A DNA stretch of 64,000 bases. It comes from Campylobacterales bacterium (GTDB lineage Bacteria; Campylobacterota; Campylobacteria; Campylobacterales; Sulfurovaceae). The stretch spans positions 62-64,061 of the forward strand of contig JACXUO010000001.1 of the NCBI GenBank assembly GCA_014763885.1. The letters run 5' to 3'. A program made the translations under genes and the position numbers. The notes beneath the pieces were generated by a model. That model saw only the letters and a program-made list of their open reading frames with translations, was not told where the DNA came from and searched no databases. The number at the start of each line of letters is the position of its first letter. Positions within the stretch are counted from its first letter, which is position 1. Of this stretch, positions 4,974 to 63,585 are shown piece after piece.

Positions 4974-6044
4974 TTATTTTGATGCATAGTCAGCGATGAT
5001 ATCACCGATCTCACTGCACGAACAGATCTCTTTGGCATCATAGTCGCCCAGATCCCCTGTGCGGTACCCGTCTGCAAGCGCCTTTTTGATCGCCTCATCG
5101 ATTCTCTCCGCAGCTTTCTCTTCACCGAGTGCATAACGCAACATCATGCTTGCACTTGAGATCGTAGCAAGCGGGTTCGCGATCCCCTGGCCTGCAATAT
5201 CCGGTGCCGAACCATGGATCGGCTCATAAAGCCCTACACCTTTTCCGGTACTGGCACTCGGAAGAAGCCCGATCGAACCGCTGAGCATACTTGCCGCATC
5301 CGAGAGAATATCCCCGAAGATATTCCCTGTCAAAATCACATCAAACTGTTTGGGAGCACGGATCAGCTGCATTGCTGCATTATCGACATACATATGCGTC
5401 AACTCGACTTCAGGATAATCTTTTGCCACCTCTTCGACAATCTCTCTCCAGAACTGACTCACTTCAAGCACATTCGCCTTGTCAACGGAACAGACACGCT
5501 TGTTGCGTTTCATGGCGATATCAAATGCGACTACCGCGATACGTTCTACCTCTTCACGCGTATAGACCATGGTATTGTAGGCTCTGTCGTCCTCGATCGC
5601 TCTTGGCTGACCGAAGTAGATACCGCCTGTCAGTTCACGTACGACCATGATATCCACACCTCTGATCACCTCAGGTTTCAGGGTAGATGCATTGACAAGC
5701 TCATCATAGACCATCGCCGGACGAAGGTTGGCAAACGTTCCCATCTCTTTACGCAGGCCGAGAAGTCCTGTTTCAGGACGGAGGTGTCTCTCCAGGTTGT
5801 CCCACTTTGGTCCGCCGATCGCACCGAAAAGAACCGCATCGCACTTCTTTACACCCTGGATCGTCTCTTCAGGAAGCGGTACACCGGTTTCGTCGATCGC
5901 CGCTCCTCCAAGAAGCATCTCCTCATACTTAAGGGTAAATCCTTCTCTCACAGACACCGCGTCCAACACCTTGATCGCCTCATCCACGATCTCTGGACCG
6001 ATCCCGTCACCTTTAATCACTCCGATTTTATAACTCTTACTCAT
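4974..6044 (-). CDS. leuB: 3-isopropylmalate dehydrogenase
   Basis: [40 protein letters not shown]. Confidence 0.97.
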
Positions 6045-6058
6045 ACTATATAACCTTT

Positions 6059-6553
6059 TTACGCTTGTTGCTTTGCGATTTCTTGTTTTGCATAATTGAT
6101 CAATCCACCCGCATCAACGAGCTCCTGCATAAATGCAGGAATCGGTGTGAACTTGTAAGTTTTCGCCTGAGTTACATTGATGATCTCGCCTGCATCCATA
6201 TCGATACGGATCGTATCACCTTCCTCAATCTCTTCAGCTTCAGGAAGTTCAAAAATAGGGAGTCCCATGTTGAATGCATTTCTATAGAAGATACGTGCAA
6301 AAGTAGGTGCCACCACTGCCGCCACACCTGCTGCTTTCAGTGCGATCGGGGCATGTTCTCTGCTTGAACCACAACCGAAATTTTCACCTGCTACGATGAT
6401 ATCCCCTTCACGCATATTGTTCACGAATGACGGGTCTGCATCCTCCATCACGTGTTTAGCCAATTCTGACGCTTCAGAAGTATTCAGATATCTTGCTGCG
6501 ATGATCAAATCTGTATCGATGTTGTCACCAAATTTCCAAACTTTACCTTGCAA
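6059..6553 (-). CDS. leuD: 3-isopropylmalate dehydratase small subunit (short type-2 form)
   Basis: [40 protein letters not shown]; TTG start; adjacent to leuB. Confidence 0.9.
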
Positions 6554-6719: not shown

Positions 6720-8579
6720 ATGGCAGCAGCAAAAGACAGCATGAAAAGCATAGAAACACTATTTGCATCCAAAAAAAAGGGTGATGTGATCACACTTGAA
6801 AACATCGCCAAAGAATTCAACAAACAGATCACCGCTGCACAGGCAAAAAAAATCTACAAATTATCACTTGATAATAAAATAGATATCGTAAGTTCATCCG
6901 AATATGCCAAGCTTCTAACTACACAACAGGCTGAAAAAATCGAAGAAGCCAGAAAAAAGATCGCAGCCGGAGAGGAGCTGGAGGAGTTTGACCTTCATAA
7001 AGAGAAAGAACTCCTTGAGTGGAGCCGTTCTGACTCGCCTGTACGTATGTACCTGCGTGAAATGGGAAAAATCCCCCTGCTTACCAAAGAGGAGGAGGTA
7101 GAACTTTCCCAAAGAATTGAGGAGGGGGAGAACATCATCCTTGATGCGATCTGTTCTGTGCCCTACCTGATAGACTATATCCTCAACTATAAAGGGCCTC
7201 TTTTGAACCGCGAAAGAAGGGTAAAAGAGCTCTTTAAAAGCTTTGAGGATGACAAGAACAGTGACTCTGACAAAGAGGATGATGACGATAACGATGATGA
7301 TGACGAGAATGAAAACTCACCAAAAGATGACAGCCGGGTAAAACAGGTTGTAGACAGCTTCAAACAACTTGAGAAAGCAAAAAAAGAGTGGATGAAAGCT
7401 CGTGAAGAGATGCTCAAGATCATGGAAGATGAAACGGATGAAGAGGTGATCCTTCATGAACGTCTTAAAGTGGCTTTCAAAAAAGAGCTGCTTAAACGTG
7501 CACTGATCAATCTTGGGCCGACATCAAAACTGATCAATGAACTGGTCAAGGCGATGGAGACAGCGCTTACCAGCGATGACAGCTTTGAAAGGGAGCTCAA
7601 GCGCCTTGAGTACAAACTTCCGCTCTTCAATGATATCCTGAGAAAAAATCACCAGAAGATCCTGGATAACATTATCAATATGGATAAAGATGATATCATT
7701 AATGCGGTTCCGGAAACCACCATGGTAAGTACCTATGTGGAGATCAAAAAACTCTTTGAGACACGTGAAGCAAGTAAGGGTGGATTTGACCTGAGTGAGG
7801 AAAAACTCGAAGAGGTACTGAACCAGATCCGTCAGGGTAAAGCCAAAAGCGAGAAAGCAAAAACACGTATGGCAAAATCAAACCTGAGACTGGTTGTATC
7901 AATTGCCAAACGTTATACGAACCGTGGTCTTCCCTTCCTTGACCTGATCCAGGAAGGAAATATCGGGCTGATGAAAGCCGTTGACAAGTTCGAGTATGAG
8001 AAGGGATACAAGTTCTCGACCTACGCAACATGGTGGATCCGTCAGGCCATCAGCCGTGCGATCGCAGACCAGGCACGTACGATCCGTATCCCGATCCATA
8101 TGATCGAAACGATCAACCGTATCAACAAGATCATCCGCAAACATCTCCAGGAGACAGGACGGGAACCTGATCTTGAAACGATCGCTGAAGAGGTAGGACT
8201 CTCTGTCGACAAGGTCAAAAATGTCATCAAGATCACCAAAGAGCCGGTCAGCCTTGAGACACCGGTAGGGGATGAGGATGACGGAAGATTTGGGGACTTT
8301 ATTGAAGACAAAGACACGCTCAGCCCTACAGATGCTGTACTCAAAGATGACCTCAACCTTCAGATCGATGAAGTACTTGACCAGCTGAATGAGAGGGAAA
8401 AAGCCGTCATCCGTATGAGATTCGGATTGCTTGAAGATGAAAGTGACAGAACCCTTGAGGAGATCGGAAAAGAGCTCAATGTGACGCGTGAACGTGTGCG
8501 TCAGATCGAAAGCTCGGCAATTAAAAAATTGAAACACCCGAAAGTCGGGAGAAAACTCAAAAACTATATCGAGGAGTAG
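6720..8579 (+). CDS. rpoD: RNA polymerase primary sigma factor sigma70
   Basis: [54 protein letters not shown], region 4 [19 protein letters not shown]. Confidence 0.98.
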
Positions 8580-8627
8580 TCAAAACTCCTCTCTGACGGA
8601 GGATGTTCCACCCCTCAGCAGATACGC

Positions 8628-8843
8628 TTATTGGTCCGAGATATATCCTACCGTCCCGCCGACAACGGTCCCGACAGCTGCACCTTTCAGGACATTCCCT
8701 CCGGTCACGCCTGATACGACAGCCCCACTCGCTGCACCGACCAACGCACCTTTTTTTGTATTCGGACTGGGTTGTGCACAACCACCTATCATTAACGTCA
8801 GAACAAATACTGCAGAGACTTTTTTGATTGCTGTTCTTTGCAT
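8628..8843 (-). CDS. Small glycine-zipper lipoprotein
   Basis: Lipobox IGGC; GALVGAASGAVV...GAAVGTVVGGTVG; AAGGAGG RBS; own TG-T-TATAAT promoter at 8874-8882. Confidence 0.8.
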   Translation of the reverse strand: MQRTAIKKVSAVFVLTLMIGGCAQPSPNTKKGALVGAASGAVVSGVTGGNVLKGAAVGTVVGGTVGYISDQ

Positions 8844-8924
8844 ACTGCCTCCTTTTCTCTCATATTTTGTTTCATTATAACATATAGAGAGGATTTATCA
8901 CTATGCGATATGAGACCATCACTA

Positions 8925-9091
8925 TTTTTTTAGAAAGATAAAAGGCGGGATATGGCGGTAGATTTCATCTATCCTTACAAGTACCTGAAGTGGACAAGTT
9001 TGCATGAGGGCAATCATATAATAAGGAGGTACTTCAGGCACTTGTAAAGTCAGAACCATCCGATGTACAATCGACTTTTTTCCGTGCTTAT
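8925..9091 (-). ncRNA. Candidate long-hairpin ncRNA, 6S (ssrS)-like; ends approximate
   Basis: 17-bp stem 8975-8991/9031-9047 with one G.U pair in minus orientation; weaker outer stem; extended -10 TG-T-TATACT at 9098-9106; both flanking genes have their own promoters. Confidence 0.5.
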
Positions 9092-9213
9092 GACCAAAGT
9101 ATAACATAGAGCATCCCGTTGATACGGAGCCTGTTGATTAAATTTTAACCAATATTAAAAATAGCGTGGAGTTCGTTATAATACGCCCAAAATACGCTTG
9201 CAAAAGGAACAGA

Positions 9214-9969
9214 ATGGGTCTTCCAAATTTTTTTGTACTCATTATCGGCACAGAGATACTCAACCAAAGAAGACGCGACAGGCATTTTGACTATGTTGCC
9301 TCCTCCCTGGCCAAAAAGGGATATAAGTTGACAGGCTCTTTCACGATAGAGGATGATCCTGCGCTTATCGTACAGACGATCAAATTTATCGCCTCACAGC
9401 CAAATCCTGTACTTTTCAGTTTCGGGGGAATCGGTTCGACACCGGATGACCATACAAGAAAATGTGCAGCCATTGCACTGAGAGACGGTACGCTGCCTGT
9501 TCACGAGGAAGCCAGAGAGATCATCGTTGCCCAGTTGGGAGAAAGAGCCTATCCCTACTCGGTACGAATGGCCGAACTTCCAAAAGGATCACAACTCCTG
9601 GACAACCCCGTCAACAAAATGCCGGCGTTCAGCCTGGATGAGCGCTTCTTCTTTATGCCCGGTTTTCCCGAAATGAGCCACCCCATGGTCGAAGCGATCA
9701 TCAACAGACTCATTCCCCATCAACAGACCTATTACCGCCATACCCTGACCGCCTCCTGCAAGGAGAATATCTTCATAGAAGTGATGGAAAAAATGCCCCA
9801 AGGGGTAGAGTTCTCATCGTTGCCGAAACTCTGCAGCAATGGATGGAGGGTCTCTGTCTCTGTAGCATCATATGAGGAAGAGACGGCACGGGCTGCATTT
9901 AAAATGTATACGGATCTGCTGGATGCCAAGGCAATCCCCTACACGCTTGAGGATGAAGGTAACCGCTAA
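9214..9969 (+). CDS. CinA N-terminal-like molybdopterin-binding (MoCF_biosynth) domain protein
   Basis: IIGTEILN.RRRD, SFGGIGSTPDDHT, PGFPEM. Start moved from 9166 to ATG 9214 (AAGGA RBS; TATAAT at 9177-9182). Confidence 0.85.
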   Translation: MGLPNFFVLIIGTEILNQRRRDRHFDYVASSLAKKGYKLTGSFTIEDDPALIVQTIKFIASQPNPVLFSFGGIGSTPDDHTRKCAAIALRDGTLPVHEEAREIIVAQLGERAYPYSVRMAELPKGSQLLDNPVNKMPAFSLDERFFFMPGFPEMSHPMVEAIINRLIPHQQTYYRHTLTASCKENIFIEVMEKMPQGVEFSSLPKLCSNGWRVSVSVASYEEETARAAFKMYTDLLDAKAIPYTLEDEGNR

Positions 9970-12435: not shown

Positions 12436-13590
12436 TTAGAGGTCGATTTCTCTTCTTCTGTTTCTCAGATAGTTCTCAATCCCTTCGGCAATCCCTTTGG
12501 CTAACAGATTCTGATACTCTGCCGAAAAGAGGCGCTTTCGCTCTTTTGGATGAGAGATATACCCCACCTCGATCAGGACTGAGGGCCTGCTTGCACCGAC
12601 CAGTACATAAAACGGTGCATGACGTACCCCGCCATCCTTCACATCCCTGTAGAGACTTCTTGCATTGGCCATCATACGTTTATGGATATCAATCGCCAGC
12701 TTGTTCGACTCAACGATCTTCGGCCCGTTGAGTACGGAATCGATGATCACATTTTTACTGACACGGTCTGTCCCTTTCAAGACGGCTTCGTTTTCTCTGG
12801 CAGCGATACGCTGAGAACGTTCATCCCTGGTATTCTGTAGAAAAAATGTCTCAATCCCGTGCATCTTGTCACGCTTGCTTTGGGCTATGGCGTTGGCATG
12901 GATAGAGATAAAGACTTTTGCATCTTTTCTGTCGGCGATACGCGTACGCTCATGGAGCTTTAAAAAACGGTCACTGCTCCGCGTCAGATAAACCGGGAAT
13001 CCCCTTTTTTTCAACTGTTTAGTAACCTTTCTGGAGATCGCGAGCACAAGATCCTTTTCTCTTTTTCCACCTCCGATTGCCCCGCTGTCATGCCCCCCGT
13101 GACCTGCATCGATCACGATCACTTCCGTGTGGTGTTGTCTCGTTACCTTCTGTTCCCTTGGTTTTGCATATGCCTGCTTAGCAGGCGTGAAATCTTTTTG
13201 GAGATAGGCACTCTTCCTGGGCAGGGAGATATGATAGCTCGCTTTGGAAAAAAGCGGTTGGTAGGCTGTCGGCTTGAAAGGGGATTTGCTTTCTATCACG
13301 ACACGTACTGTATTGGCATTGTTCTGAGCGATACGGACATTGTTGCCCAGACCAAGCGGTACACGGCTGTGTGCAAGCTTCATCTCCTTAAAGTCATAGA
13401 TTTCGCGATGAGGGTTGGGGAGTGTAAAGTGCCTGATCTTTTTTGTATCCAGCGGATGTGCAAAAGAAAGCCTCAGTTCACCTTTTTTGACAAGTGCCTT
13501 TGTCATACTGTTCATTCCCCCGAAAAGAGAGGGGGAAAAGAAGAAGAGTGTTATGAAGAAAACGAGTACAGGATAACGCCCTCTAAACAT
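12436..13590 (-). CDS. amiA: N-acetylmuramoyl-L-alanine amidase (AMIN + Amidase_3)
   Basis: Signal peptide; IDAGHGGHD, EKD, SIHAN, LIEVGY. Confidence 0.93.
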   Translation of the reverse strand: MFRGRYPVLVFFITLFFFSPSLFGGMNSMTKALVKKGELRLSFAHPLDTKKIRHFTLPNPHREIYDFKEMKLAHSRVPLGLGNNVRIAQNNANTVRVVIESKSPFKPTAYQPLFSKASYHISLPRKSAYLQKDFTPAKQAYAKPREQKVTRQHHTEVIVIDAGHGGHDSGAIGGGKREKDLVLAISRKVTKQLKKRGFPVYLTRSSDRFLKLHERTRIADRKDAKVFISIHANAIAQSKRDKMHGIETFFLQNTRDERSQRIAARENEAVLKGTDRVSKNVIIDSVLNGPKIVESNKLAIDIHKRMMANARSLYRDVKDGGVRHAPFYVLVGASRPSVLIEVGYISHPKERKRLFSAEYQNLLAKGIAEGIENYLRNRRREIDL

Positions 13591-62819: not shown

Positions 62820-62895
62820 GACCTATTAGCTCAGCTGGTAGAGCAACTCCCTTTTAAGGAGTGGGCCCATGGTTCGAATCCATGATGGGTCACCA
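62820..62895 (+). tRNA. tRNA-Lys(UUU)
   Basis: Cloverleaf; anticodon loop CTTTTAA; TTCGAAT; CCA. Confidence 0.97.
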
Positions 62896-62970
62896 TTTAA
62901 TTTTGTAGTTTTCCTCAGCGGAAGGCTCATGCAACGTTGTTGCTTTATTTATGACTGTTTGGATCTAGAT

Positions 62971-63046
62971 GACCCTTTCATCTAGTGGCCAAGGATGCTG
63001 CGTTTTCATCGCAGACACAGAGGTTCAAATCCTCTAGGGGTCGCCA
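62971..63046 (+). tRNA. tRNA-Glu(UUC)
   Basis: Anticodon loop TTTTCAT; TTCAAAT; CCA. Confidence 0.96.
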
Positions 63047-63059
63047 AATTGACAGTTAT

Positions 63060-63135
63060 GGTCGCTTAGCTCAGTTGGTAGAGCGCTACCCTTACAAGGT
63101 AGATGTCACAAGTTCGAGTCTTGTAGCGACCACCA
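63060..63135 (+). tRNA. tRNA-Val(UAC)
   Basis: Anticodon loop CTTACAA; CCA. Confidence 0.97.
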
Positions 63136-63206
63136 TTTAAATCTTGTCTTAATTTAAGGTTAAGGTGAGTATAATTTAAGCTCAAATTAAAATTTGAGAT
63201 TACGGT

Positions 63207-63283
63207 GCGGCGGTAGTTCAGTTGGTTAGAATACCTGCCTGTCACGCAGGGGGTCGCGAGTTCGAGTCTCGTCCGCCGCGCCA
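63207..63283 (+). tRNA. tRNA-Asp(GUC)
   Basis: Anticodon loop CTGTCAC; CCA. Confidence 0.97.
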
Positions 63284-63294
63284 CTATTTTAGGT

Positions 63295-63370
63295 GACCTA
63301 TTAGCTCAGCTGGTAGAGCAACTCCCTTTTAAGGAGTGGGCCCATGGTTCGAATCCATGATGGGTCACCA
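63295..63370 (+). tRNA. tRNA-Lys(UUU), second identical copy
   Basis: Same sequence as 62820-62895. Confidence 0.97.
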
Positions 63371-63391
63371 TTTTTATACATATTTTCATTT

Positions 63392-63467
63392 GGTCGCTTA
63401 GCTCAGTTGGTAGAGCGCTACCCTTACAAGGTAGATGTCACAAGTTCGAGTCTTGTAGCGACCACCA
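63392..63467 (+). tRNA. tRNA-Val(UAC), second identical copy
   Basis: Same sequence as 63060-63135. Confidence 0.97.
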
Positions 63468-63508
63468 TGTTTTACATTAATTTTTTTAATGTCATTCTTT
63501 TTATTGGT

Positions 63509-63585
63509 GCGGCGGTAGTTCAGTTGGTTAGAATACCTGCCTGTCACGCAGGGGGTCGCGAGTTCGAGTCTCGTCCGCCGCGCCA
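63509..63585 (+). tRNA. tRNA-Asp(GUC), second identical copy
   Basis: Same sequence as 63207-63283. Confidence 0.97.

Follow-up and report, generated by a model that had tools for sequence, protein, structure and literature searches.

In Sulfurovum (Campylobacterota), a conserved long hairpin lies in the spacer between the gene of a Gly-zipper lipoprotein and a MoCF/CinA-like gene, close to rpoD. We analysed this element in a 64,000-nucleotide (nt) stretch of contig JACXUO010000001.1, which is called the window here. The alignments show a compensated helix, the strand on which it folds, its conservation, a conserved -10 box, a conserved loop motif that is predicted to be unpaired, and a lack of coding potential. 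With moderate confidence, we interpret the element as a structured regulatory RNA that is transcribed from its own promoter on the minus strand and carries an anti-Shine-Dalgarno (anti-SD) loop, which would act on ribosome-binding sites. An initial annotation of the window had proposed that the hairpin is either the 6S RNA of the organism (ssrS) or an undescribed minus-strand small RNA with its own promoter. The conserved -10 box, the bias towards G.U pairs, the covariation and the lack of coding potential point to the second of these proposals.

The inverted repeat is found where it had been annotated. Its core arms on the plus strand, 8975-8991 (TTACAAGTACCTGAAGT) and 9031-9047 (ACTTCAGGCACTTGTAA), pair with a single mismatch, and direct reading of the sequence agrees with the annotation that this position is A.C on the plus strand but a G.U pair on the minus strand. 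With a repeat finder the arms lengthened to 24 nt (8968-8991/9031-9054) at 83% and were separated by 39 nt. They are the third-best local inverted repeat in the window, and only one other repeat is of similar quality. The 182-nt candidate folds on the minus strand with -41.7 kcal/mol (z = -2.48), and 3 of 200 shuffled sequences folded as well; the plus-strand fold of the same 182 nt has z = -1.40.

Relatives of the locus were collected by a metagenome scan with the CinA-like protein, which gave 80 loci, and with lipoprotein homologues as further anchors. The lipoprotein anchors gave 12 distinct lineages, the window and L082, L087, L088, L167, L168, L170, L172, L174, L176, L177 and L179, whose lipoproteins are 72-97% identical to that of the window. 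The gene order is the same in all 12, with the CinA-like gene, a spacer of about 320-450 nt and the lipoprotein gene. A homologous element is present in every lineage just after rpoD, on the strand of the lipoprotein gene (the minus strand of the window), and it is always directly upstream of this gene and co-oriented with it.

The conservation of the stem in relatives had been suggested as a check, and the helix proved to be compensated across the 12 lineages. RNAalifold found a single consensus helix of 23 pairs, eight of which change on both sides with pairing kept. In the 12-sequence alignment, 97.1% of the helix cells are standard pairs. None of 500 column shuffles matched the observed paired fraction, covariation score or number of double changes, and sliding the partner by 1-3 columns lowered pairing to 32-41%. 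The helix also distinguishes the two strands. Of 253 cells, 247 can pair on the minus strand and 228 on the plus strand; G.U occurs 20 times and A.C once. These counts indicate that the element folds on the minus strand of the window, as had been argued from the one mismatch of the core. The upper 12 base pairs (bp) hardly vary in sequence and the two loop edges are conserved, in contrast to the free covariation of the lower stem. Between the predicted transcription start and the long helix, a small 5' hairpin is predicted in all 11 folded lineages (-2.1 to -14.6 kcal/mol). In L174, L176 and L177 it is built from unrelated sequences, and only 69% of its cells pair in the fixed alignment because these three lineages are out of register.

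Two observations on repeats stand beside these results. Metagenome contigs of a variant about 96% identical (run X8) break at the hairpin (8985-9061) and carry alternative bases at 9030/9031 and a C>A change at 8978, by which one stem position would lose its partner. Strain heterogeneity is indicated, or else an artefact of assembly at the inverted repeat. A different repeat, 25349-25375/25455-25481 (27 nt, 93%), is the best local one in the window. Its arms are separated by 79 nt, and divergent open reading frames (ORFs) flank the 300-nt spacer that contains it. Each of its arms is itself palindromic (TTTGGCA-N-TGCCAAA), and it might consist of paired operator sites or be another structured element.

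The loop is 36-60 nt long across the lineages and its interior is variable. CCUCCU stands at the start of the loop in all 12, in most of them as part of CCUCCUUAU, and the remainder of the motif varies slightly, for example CCUCCUGAU in L167 and L170. The anti-SD 3' terminus of 16S rRNA is canonically CCUCCUUA, and the first nine nt of the loop, CCUCCUUAU, match this end. The mean predicted probability that the motif is unpaired is 0.68-0.99 in 11 lineages. The motif is complementary to the SD sequence of the lipoprotein gene, AAAAGGAGG (8856-8848), over 6-7 bp. When the 2-4 genes of each locus were compared, the lipoprotein start region was the best partner of the seed in all seven lineages examined (-7.4 to -11.6 kcal/mol).

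Column identity along the spacer shows that its conservation is blocky. One block is the putative promoter of the RNA, P1, in which G-N-TATACTTT (9105-9096) is invariant in the 12 lineages. The sigma-70 motif of Campylobacterota is gnTAnaAT, located 4-8 nt upstream of transcription starts and without a -35 box (PMC3847290). G-N-TATACT fits this motif, and a start near 9091 is therefore predicted. The initial annotation had described an extended -10 box, and TG-T-TATACT is indeed read on the minus strand at 9106-9098. Its G at -14 and the TATACT are invariant, while the TG is not conserved across the lineages. The claim of an own promoter thus agrees with the invariant box and its fit to the motif, with 9091 as a predicted start. 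A promoter scan also confirmed that both neighbours of the spacer have TATAAT boxes of their own, at 8879-8874 on the minus strand and 9177-9182 on the plus strand. Upstream of P1 there is an AT-rich palindrome (9134-9152, TTGATTAAATTTTAACCAA) with a column identity of 0.84-0.92 in 10 lineages. Its distance to the -10 box of P1 is a constant 31-32 nt in all lineages, whereas its distance to the promoter of the CinA-like gene shifts by about 20 nt in L174 and L177. The palindrome therefore appears to belong to the promoter of the RNA, and it is probably an operator for a dimeric regulator that controls P1.

Judged from the sequences collected, the element appears to be restricted to one lineage or group of Sulfurovum. 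In most scanned loci, whose rpoD is 82-86% identical, the CinA-like gene directly follows rpoD, and the lipoprotein gene occurs at this junction only in the clade of the window. The element was not found at the rpoD-cinA junction of 77 related loci without the lipoprotein gene, a count that refers to these loci and not to whole genomes. A covariance model built from the 12 lineages matched only these spacers in 492 kb, including the rest of the window and the 77 loci, and blastn likewise detected no second copy. Rfam 15 families gave only chance-level matches, to eukaryotic miRNA and snoRNA models, in the window, at the site and in ten homologues. Two loci are informative about the linkage of the element to its neighbour. 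In L090, whose rpoD is 93.5% identical, only a decayed 3' remnant of the lipoprotein gene is left (L090:2216-2500); the 5' part of the gene, its promoter P2, the RNA element and the palindrome are all missing, and the promoter of the CinA-like gene is kept. In L178, a lipoprotein paralogue behind a glutamine amidotransferase gene (L178:755-1047) has the same P2-type promoter and SD sequence in a 77-nt spacer without the RNA element. The junction of rpoD and the CinA-like gene is a variable spot in Sulfurovum and holds different insertions in different lineages, so the nearness of the element to rpoD is considered incidental. In L128 and L144 the insert is a pair that, judged by eye from the translations, resembles an RHH antitoxin and a PIN/VapC-like toxin. 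In L145, L158 and L162 the inserts carry unrelated ORFs.

Comparative evidence suggests that the element is transcribed on the minus strand; where the RNA begins and ends, which mRNA it targets and how it acts are inferences. P1, a sigma-70-type promoter (G-N-TATACT), would start transcription near 9091. The RNA would then begin with purine-rich sequence, followed by a small 5' hairpin and a highly stable helix of 23-24 bp. The rigid helix would hold the large loop open and expose CCUCCUUAU, which could pair with SD regions of mRNAs and block ribosome binding. The most plausible target would be the co-oriented Gly-zipper lipoprotein mRNA, which is expected to start about 200 nt downstream, from P2. 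The AT-rich palindrome, at its fixed upstream distance, probably controls P1. At 23 bp, the near-perfect helix is long enough for RNase III. With its two turns it is a plausible substrate of this enzyme, and the active species may therefore be a processed fragment. Campylobacterota have no RNase E, and RNase III matures CJnc230/FlmE and CJnc180/190 (PMC11187230).

Several observations weigh against this interpretation. There is no conserved intrinsic terminator between the helix and P2. A clear hairpin with a U run precedes the lipoprotein gene only in L174 and L177, where it overlaps the P2 spacer. The lack of a conserved terminator weakens the case for a discrete small RNA. The -10 box of P1 contains an invariant non-consensus C, and simple scaffolding leaves the near invariance of the upper 12 bp unexplained. 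In a crude duplex scan with the whole loop, the lipoprotein ranked only 24th among the 65 translation start regions of the window. The pairing between the loop and the lipoprotein mRNA can therefore be claimed only as generic SD complementarity, and the best-partner result in the seven lineages reflects a strong generic SD sequence rather than a specific site. Among RNA runs, none was found that holds the element. Four marine-sediment metatranscriptomes that contain the organism gave low-depth contigs over parts of rpoD and the lipoprotein gene (8423-8801) and no contig over 8802-10100. Such contigs can establish presence but cannot establish absence, and library preparation often loses small RNAs. 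Since only contigs were available, the absence is weak evidence.

The main rival to a separate regulatory RNA is a cis-acting long leader, in which transcripts from P1 would read through P2 into the lipoprotein gene. The CCUCCU motifs of the loop and the 3' part would sequester the lipoprotein SD sequence in competition with the purine-rich 5' end. Translation would then be conditional, depending for example on temperature, a ligand or a protein, and P2 would give unregulated expression. RNA thermometers are further mRNA leaders that sequester SD sequences. The constant position and orientation of the element upstream of the lipoprotein gene would be expected of a leader, as would the lack of a conserved terminator between them, the combination of an SD-like 5' AGGAGG with CU-rich 3' motifs in most lineages, and the joint loss of element and gene in L090. 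However, the strong and invariant P2 intervenes, and the L178 paralogue uses P2 without the element. L174 and L177 have their hairpin and U run before the gene, and the distance from the helix to the SD sequence varies from about 75 to 180 nt. Moreover, pairing of the 5' segment with the 3' segment or with the loop was no better than that of shuffled 5' segments, and in 11 lineages the energies of the 5'-3' duplex had z values between -1.4 and +1.2 against shuffles. We regard the leader as a serious candidate that is nevertheless doubtful. The near invariance of the upper 12 bp and of both loop edges above a covarying lower stem would be explained if a protein recognised the helix and loop, and the RNA titrated or guided this protein. 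Possible partners are proteins acting on the 3' end of 16S rRNA, enzymes of the RNase III family and CsrA-like regulators, the last of which would bind the GGA-rich 5' end. The identity of CCUCCUUA with the canonical 16S 3' terminus and the 2-4 GGA motifs per RNA are consistent with such a function. It seems unlikely all the same, since no gene of a partner protein is linked to the element (the neighbours encode the lipoprotein, a MoCF-domain protein, an MFS transporter and a pyrophosphatase) and the GGA motifs are few and lie outside hairpin loops. A CsrB-like sponge was set aside because none of these 2-4 motifs is in a hairpin loop. It is also conceivable, if improbable, that the RNA mimics the 16S 3' end by presenting CCUCCUUA on a rigid helix and acts globally. 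If so, it would be an SD sponge that retunes translation initiation. Alternatively, the anti-SD tail of 16S rRNA may be recognised or cleaved by a factor or toxin for which the RNA would serve as a decoy.

Other explanations dispense with a regulatory RNA of this type. The inverted repeat could act as DNA, either as a single-stranded hairpin or as a protein-bound palindrome, for instance at a recombination or transposition site of the attC-like or REP-like kind. A long inverted repeat at a junction with lineage-specific insertions would suit such a role, and strand asymmetry alone is not proof of RNA because hairpins of single-stranded DNA also tolerate the G.T wobble. Yet the element is a single copy in 492 kb, the folding strand carries a conserved promoter immediately upstream of it, the surroundings contain no recombinase or transposase gene, and the position is the same in 12 lineages with lipoproteins 72-97% identical to that of the window. 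We consider a function as DNA very unlikely, and a repeat or mobile element was rejected on the single copy detected by both blastn and the covariance model. The sequence also appears to be non-coding. An ATG-initiated ORF of 61 codons (8922-9107, minus strand) spans the candidate exactly, which would be expected if it, or a shorter internal ORF, encoded a small protein. Its ATG, however, lies inside the -10 box, and its product has no Pfam match. The A run at 9076-9081 is A7 in metagenome spacers that are about 99% identical and A6 in the window, which shifts the frame of this ORF. Length differences of 1-4 nt between the stem and CCUCC, together with many loop indels, break any common frame across the lineages, and the alignments contain no start codon or reading frame conserved in other lineages. 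Gene callers had not called the ORF in any of the collected contigs with gene tables spanning the spacer. No conserved start codon follows the SD-like AGGAGG of the 5' segment in the alignments, and ORFs behind it occur in L170 and L087 only. A small protein gene is hardly credible, and a coding ORF was rejected on the missing Pfam match, the frameshift in near-identical strains and the lack of conservation of the AGGAGG-linked ORFs.

The identification as 6S RNA, which sequesters the sigma-70 holoenzyme as a mimic of the open promoter, needs a closer look. It was suggested by the length of the hairpin and its large unpaired region, by a plausible RNA size of 130-200 nt, by an own promoter and by the proximity to rpoD. 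The 6S model RF00013, the check proposed with this label, found nothing in the whole window when run with its gathering score or with E<=1. It was equally negative for 8500-9500 with E<=10 and for ten homologues with E<=5, with a sensitivity for 6S RNA of Campylobacterota that was unchecked. The annotated architecture was not recovered either. The imperfect closing stem is missing from the RNAalifold consensus, and 5'-3' pairing is at shuffle level. In place of an asymmetric central bubble, the unpaired region is a terminal loop whose interior forms at most lineage-specific hairpins of 3-11 bp in differing places; only one helix is conserved, with no conserved stem beyond this region. The small 3' hairpin (8958-8974) is interrupted by an A.C mismatch when read on the minus strand. 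Neither L087 and L088 nor the other lineages have a counterpart of it, and it falls in the stretch of the spacer with the lowest conservation (8920-8965, column identity 0.4-0.6). In C. jejuni and H. pylori, 6S RNA is a transcript of about 185 nt directly upstream of purD, and in C. jejuni it is the most highly transcribed non-coding RNA after rRNA and tRNA (PMC3847290). With an E. coli PurD query, purD was not found in the window or the collected loci. Because 6S RNA of Campylobacterota adjoins purD, the true ssrS is most likely elsewhere in the genome. The absence of the element from 77 junctions makes it a poor fit to a universal housekeeping RNA, and an RNA as abundant as 6S would probably have given a contig in the metatranscriptomes in which rpoD mRNA was assembled. 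Every defining feature that could be tested failed (model, closing stem, bubble helices, distribution and synteny), and 6S RNA was rejected as an exceedingly improbable label. What the element shares with RF00013 is possibly the size class, a predicted promoter of its own and a hairpin with a large unpaired region. It differs in lacking a model match, a 5'-3' closing stem and a helix distal to the unpaired region, in its patchy rather than universal distribution, in its synteny and in showing no sign of high abundance.

The position of the element among the features of its locus is given in Table 1.

Table 1. Features of the locus in the window, with the predicted parts of the RNA element
Feature	Position	Strand	Remarks
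leuB	4974-6044	-	
leuD	6059-6553	-	
rpoD	6720-8579	+	
Lipoprotein gene, 71 amino acids, YMGG-type Gly-zipper	8628-8843 (8628-8856 with SD)	-	Pfam PF13441, E = 8.4e-9; candidate target or regulated gene
Lipoprotein SD	8848-8856	-	Conserved block
Promoter P2 of the lipoprotein gene	8874-8883	-	TGTTATAAT; invariant across lineages; outside the RNA core
Spacer, 370 nt		 	Between the lipoprotein and MoCF/CinA-like genes; holds the hairpin element
Variable pyrimidine-rich 3' segment	8887-8967	-	Lowest conservation in the spacer; predicted RNA 3' end within it, or read-through
Hairpin 2, helix of 23-24 bp	8968-9054	-	9032-9054 with 8968-8990, plus 9031/8991; 39-nt loop 8992-9030
Loop motif UUGUCC	8992-8997	-	3' loop edge; usual across lineages in the alignments
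Loop motif CCUCCUUAU	9021-9029	-	5' loop edge; anti-SD-like
Hairpin 1 (GUCGAU-UGUAC-AUCGG)	9060-9075	-	Weak in the window, -2.1 kcal/mol
Purine-rich 5' segment	9076-9091	-	AGGAGGAAGAGA in most lineages; CAUAAGCACGGAAAAAA in the window; contains the A6/A7 run (9076-9081)
Promoter P1	9098-9106	-	-10 TATACT 9103-9098; invariant G at -14 (9105); predicted start ~9091
AT-rich palindrome, 19 bp	9134-9152		TTGATTAAAWWTTAAYCAA; centre ~-52 from the predicted start; candidate regulator site
-10 box of the CinA-like gene	9177-9186		Conserved block
MoCF/CinA-like gene	9214-9969	+	Followed by MFS transporter and inorganic pyrophosphatase genes

The source organism belongs to Sulfurovum. The closest named homologues of the lipoprotein are from Sulfurovum sp. 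zt1-1 and S. mangrovi, and the more distant rpoD relatives, among the matches listed, are from other Campylobacterota. A GC-rich hairpin, GAGGAGTAGTCAAAACTCCTC (8571-8591), overlaps the stop codon of rpoD and is probably a bidirectional terminator shared by the convergent rpoD and lipoprotein genes. Elsewhere in the window, Rfam RAGATH-10 gave a sub-threshold match at 13152-13233 on the plus strand (27.9 bits against a gathering score of 41.2, E = 0.44), which is probably due to chance. A tRNA array at 62820-63585 has the order Lys(ttt)-Glu(ttc)-Val(tac)-Asp(gtc)-Lys(ttt)-Val(tac)-Asp(gtc). It contains two copies each of the Lys, Val and Asp genes, and the identical model scores of the copies suggest a recent tandem duplication.

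CJnc230/FlmE of C. jejuni is the closest functional precedent for the element. This RNA has a conserved single-stranded anti-SD motif and represses at ribosome-binding sites; it is matured by RNase III, and part of its transcription continues into a gene downstream for which an RpoD promoter is also present (PMC11187230). Both RNAs come from the same phylum, are syntenically linked to one neighbour and precede a gene with a promoter of its own. FlmE is, however, 98 nt long, exposes CCUU between two hairpins, and has no homology to the element in sequence or structure. It is mostly cut from the 3' end of the flgE mRNA under the control of RpoN (PMC11187230), whereas the element has the full CCUCCUUAU in the loop of a 23-bp helix, a sigma-70-type promoter and a position upstream of its neighbour. 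Similar comparisons can be made with H. pylori RepG (PMC8295292), S. aureus RNAIII (PMC2837412) and B. subtilis RoxS (PMC8216469), which are independent of Hfq and carry C- or C/U-rich hairpin loops. The loops of RepG, the RNAIII hairpins and RoxS pair with G-rich leader or SD sequences and block translation, as is proposed here for the element. Their sequences are unrelated, and short stems or terminator hairpins carry their loops, which are small; the element has a loop of 36-60 nt and an unusually long, near-perfect helix with an invariant upper half. The H. pylori aapA1 toxin mRNA (PMC6733600) is reported to have anti-SD stretches; like those of the element, such stretches are CU-rich, upstream of a gene and able to pair with its SD sequence. 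Compared with aapA1-type leaders, the element is separated from the gene by a conserved promoter, has no toxin-like ORF and gave no detectable conserved alternative pairing.

Sulfurovum is an abundant sulfur-oxidising genus of vents, sediments and mats, and full-text literature searches found no paper on regulatory RNAs in it. Our study provides a clean, covariation-supported candidate. Its seed can be read from the sequence, an operator is probable, and a first target suggests itself. The element is present in at least two cultured strains, S. mangrovi (CP087124, lineage L168, with the spacer at about 1,909,7xx-1,910,1xx or L168:2121-2500) and Sulfurovum sp. zt1-1 (JAQIBD010000001, lineage L167). 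The analysis also corrects a tempting mislabel, in that this long hairpin near rpoD is not 6S RNA. If the proposed function is true, the element would add a small RNA with an anti-SD loop to the Hfq-less Campylobacterota outside the pathogens, and it could represent a new RNA family.

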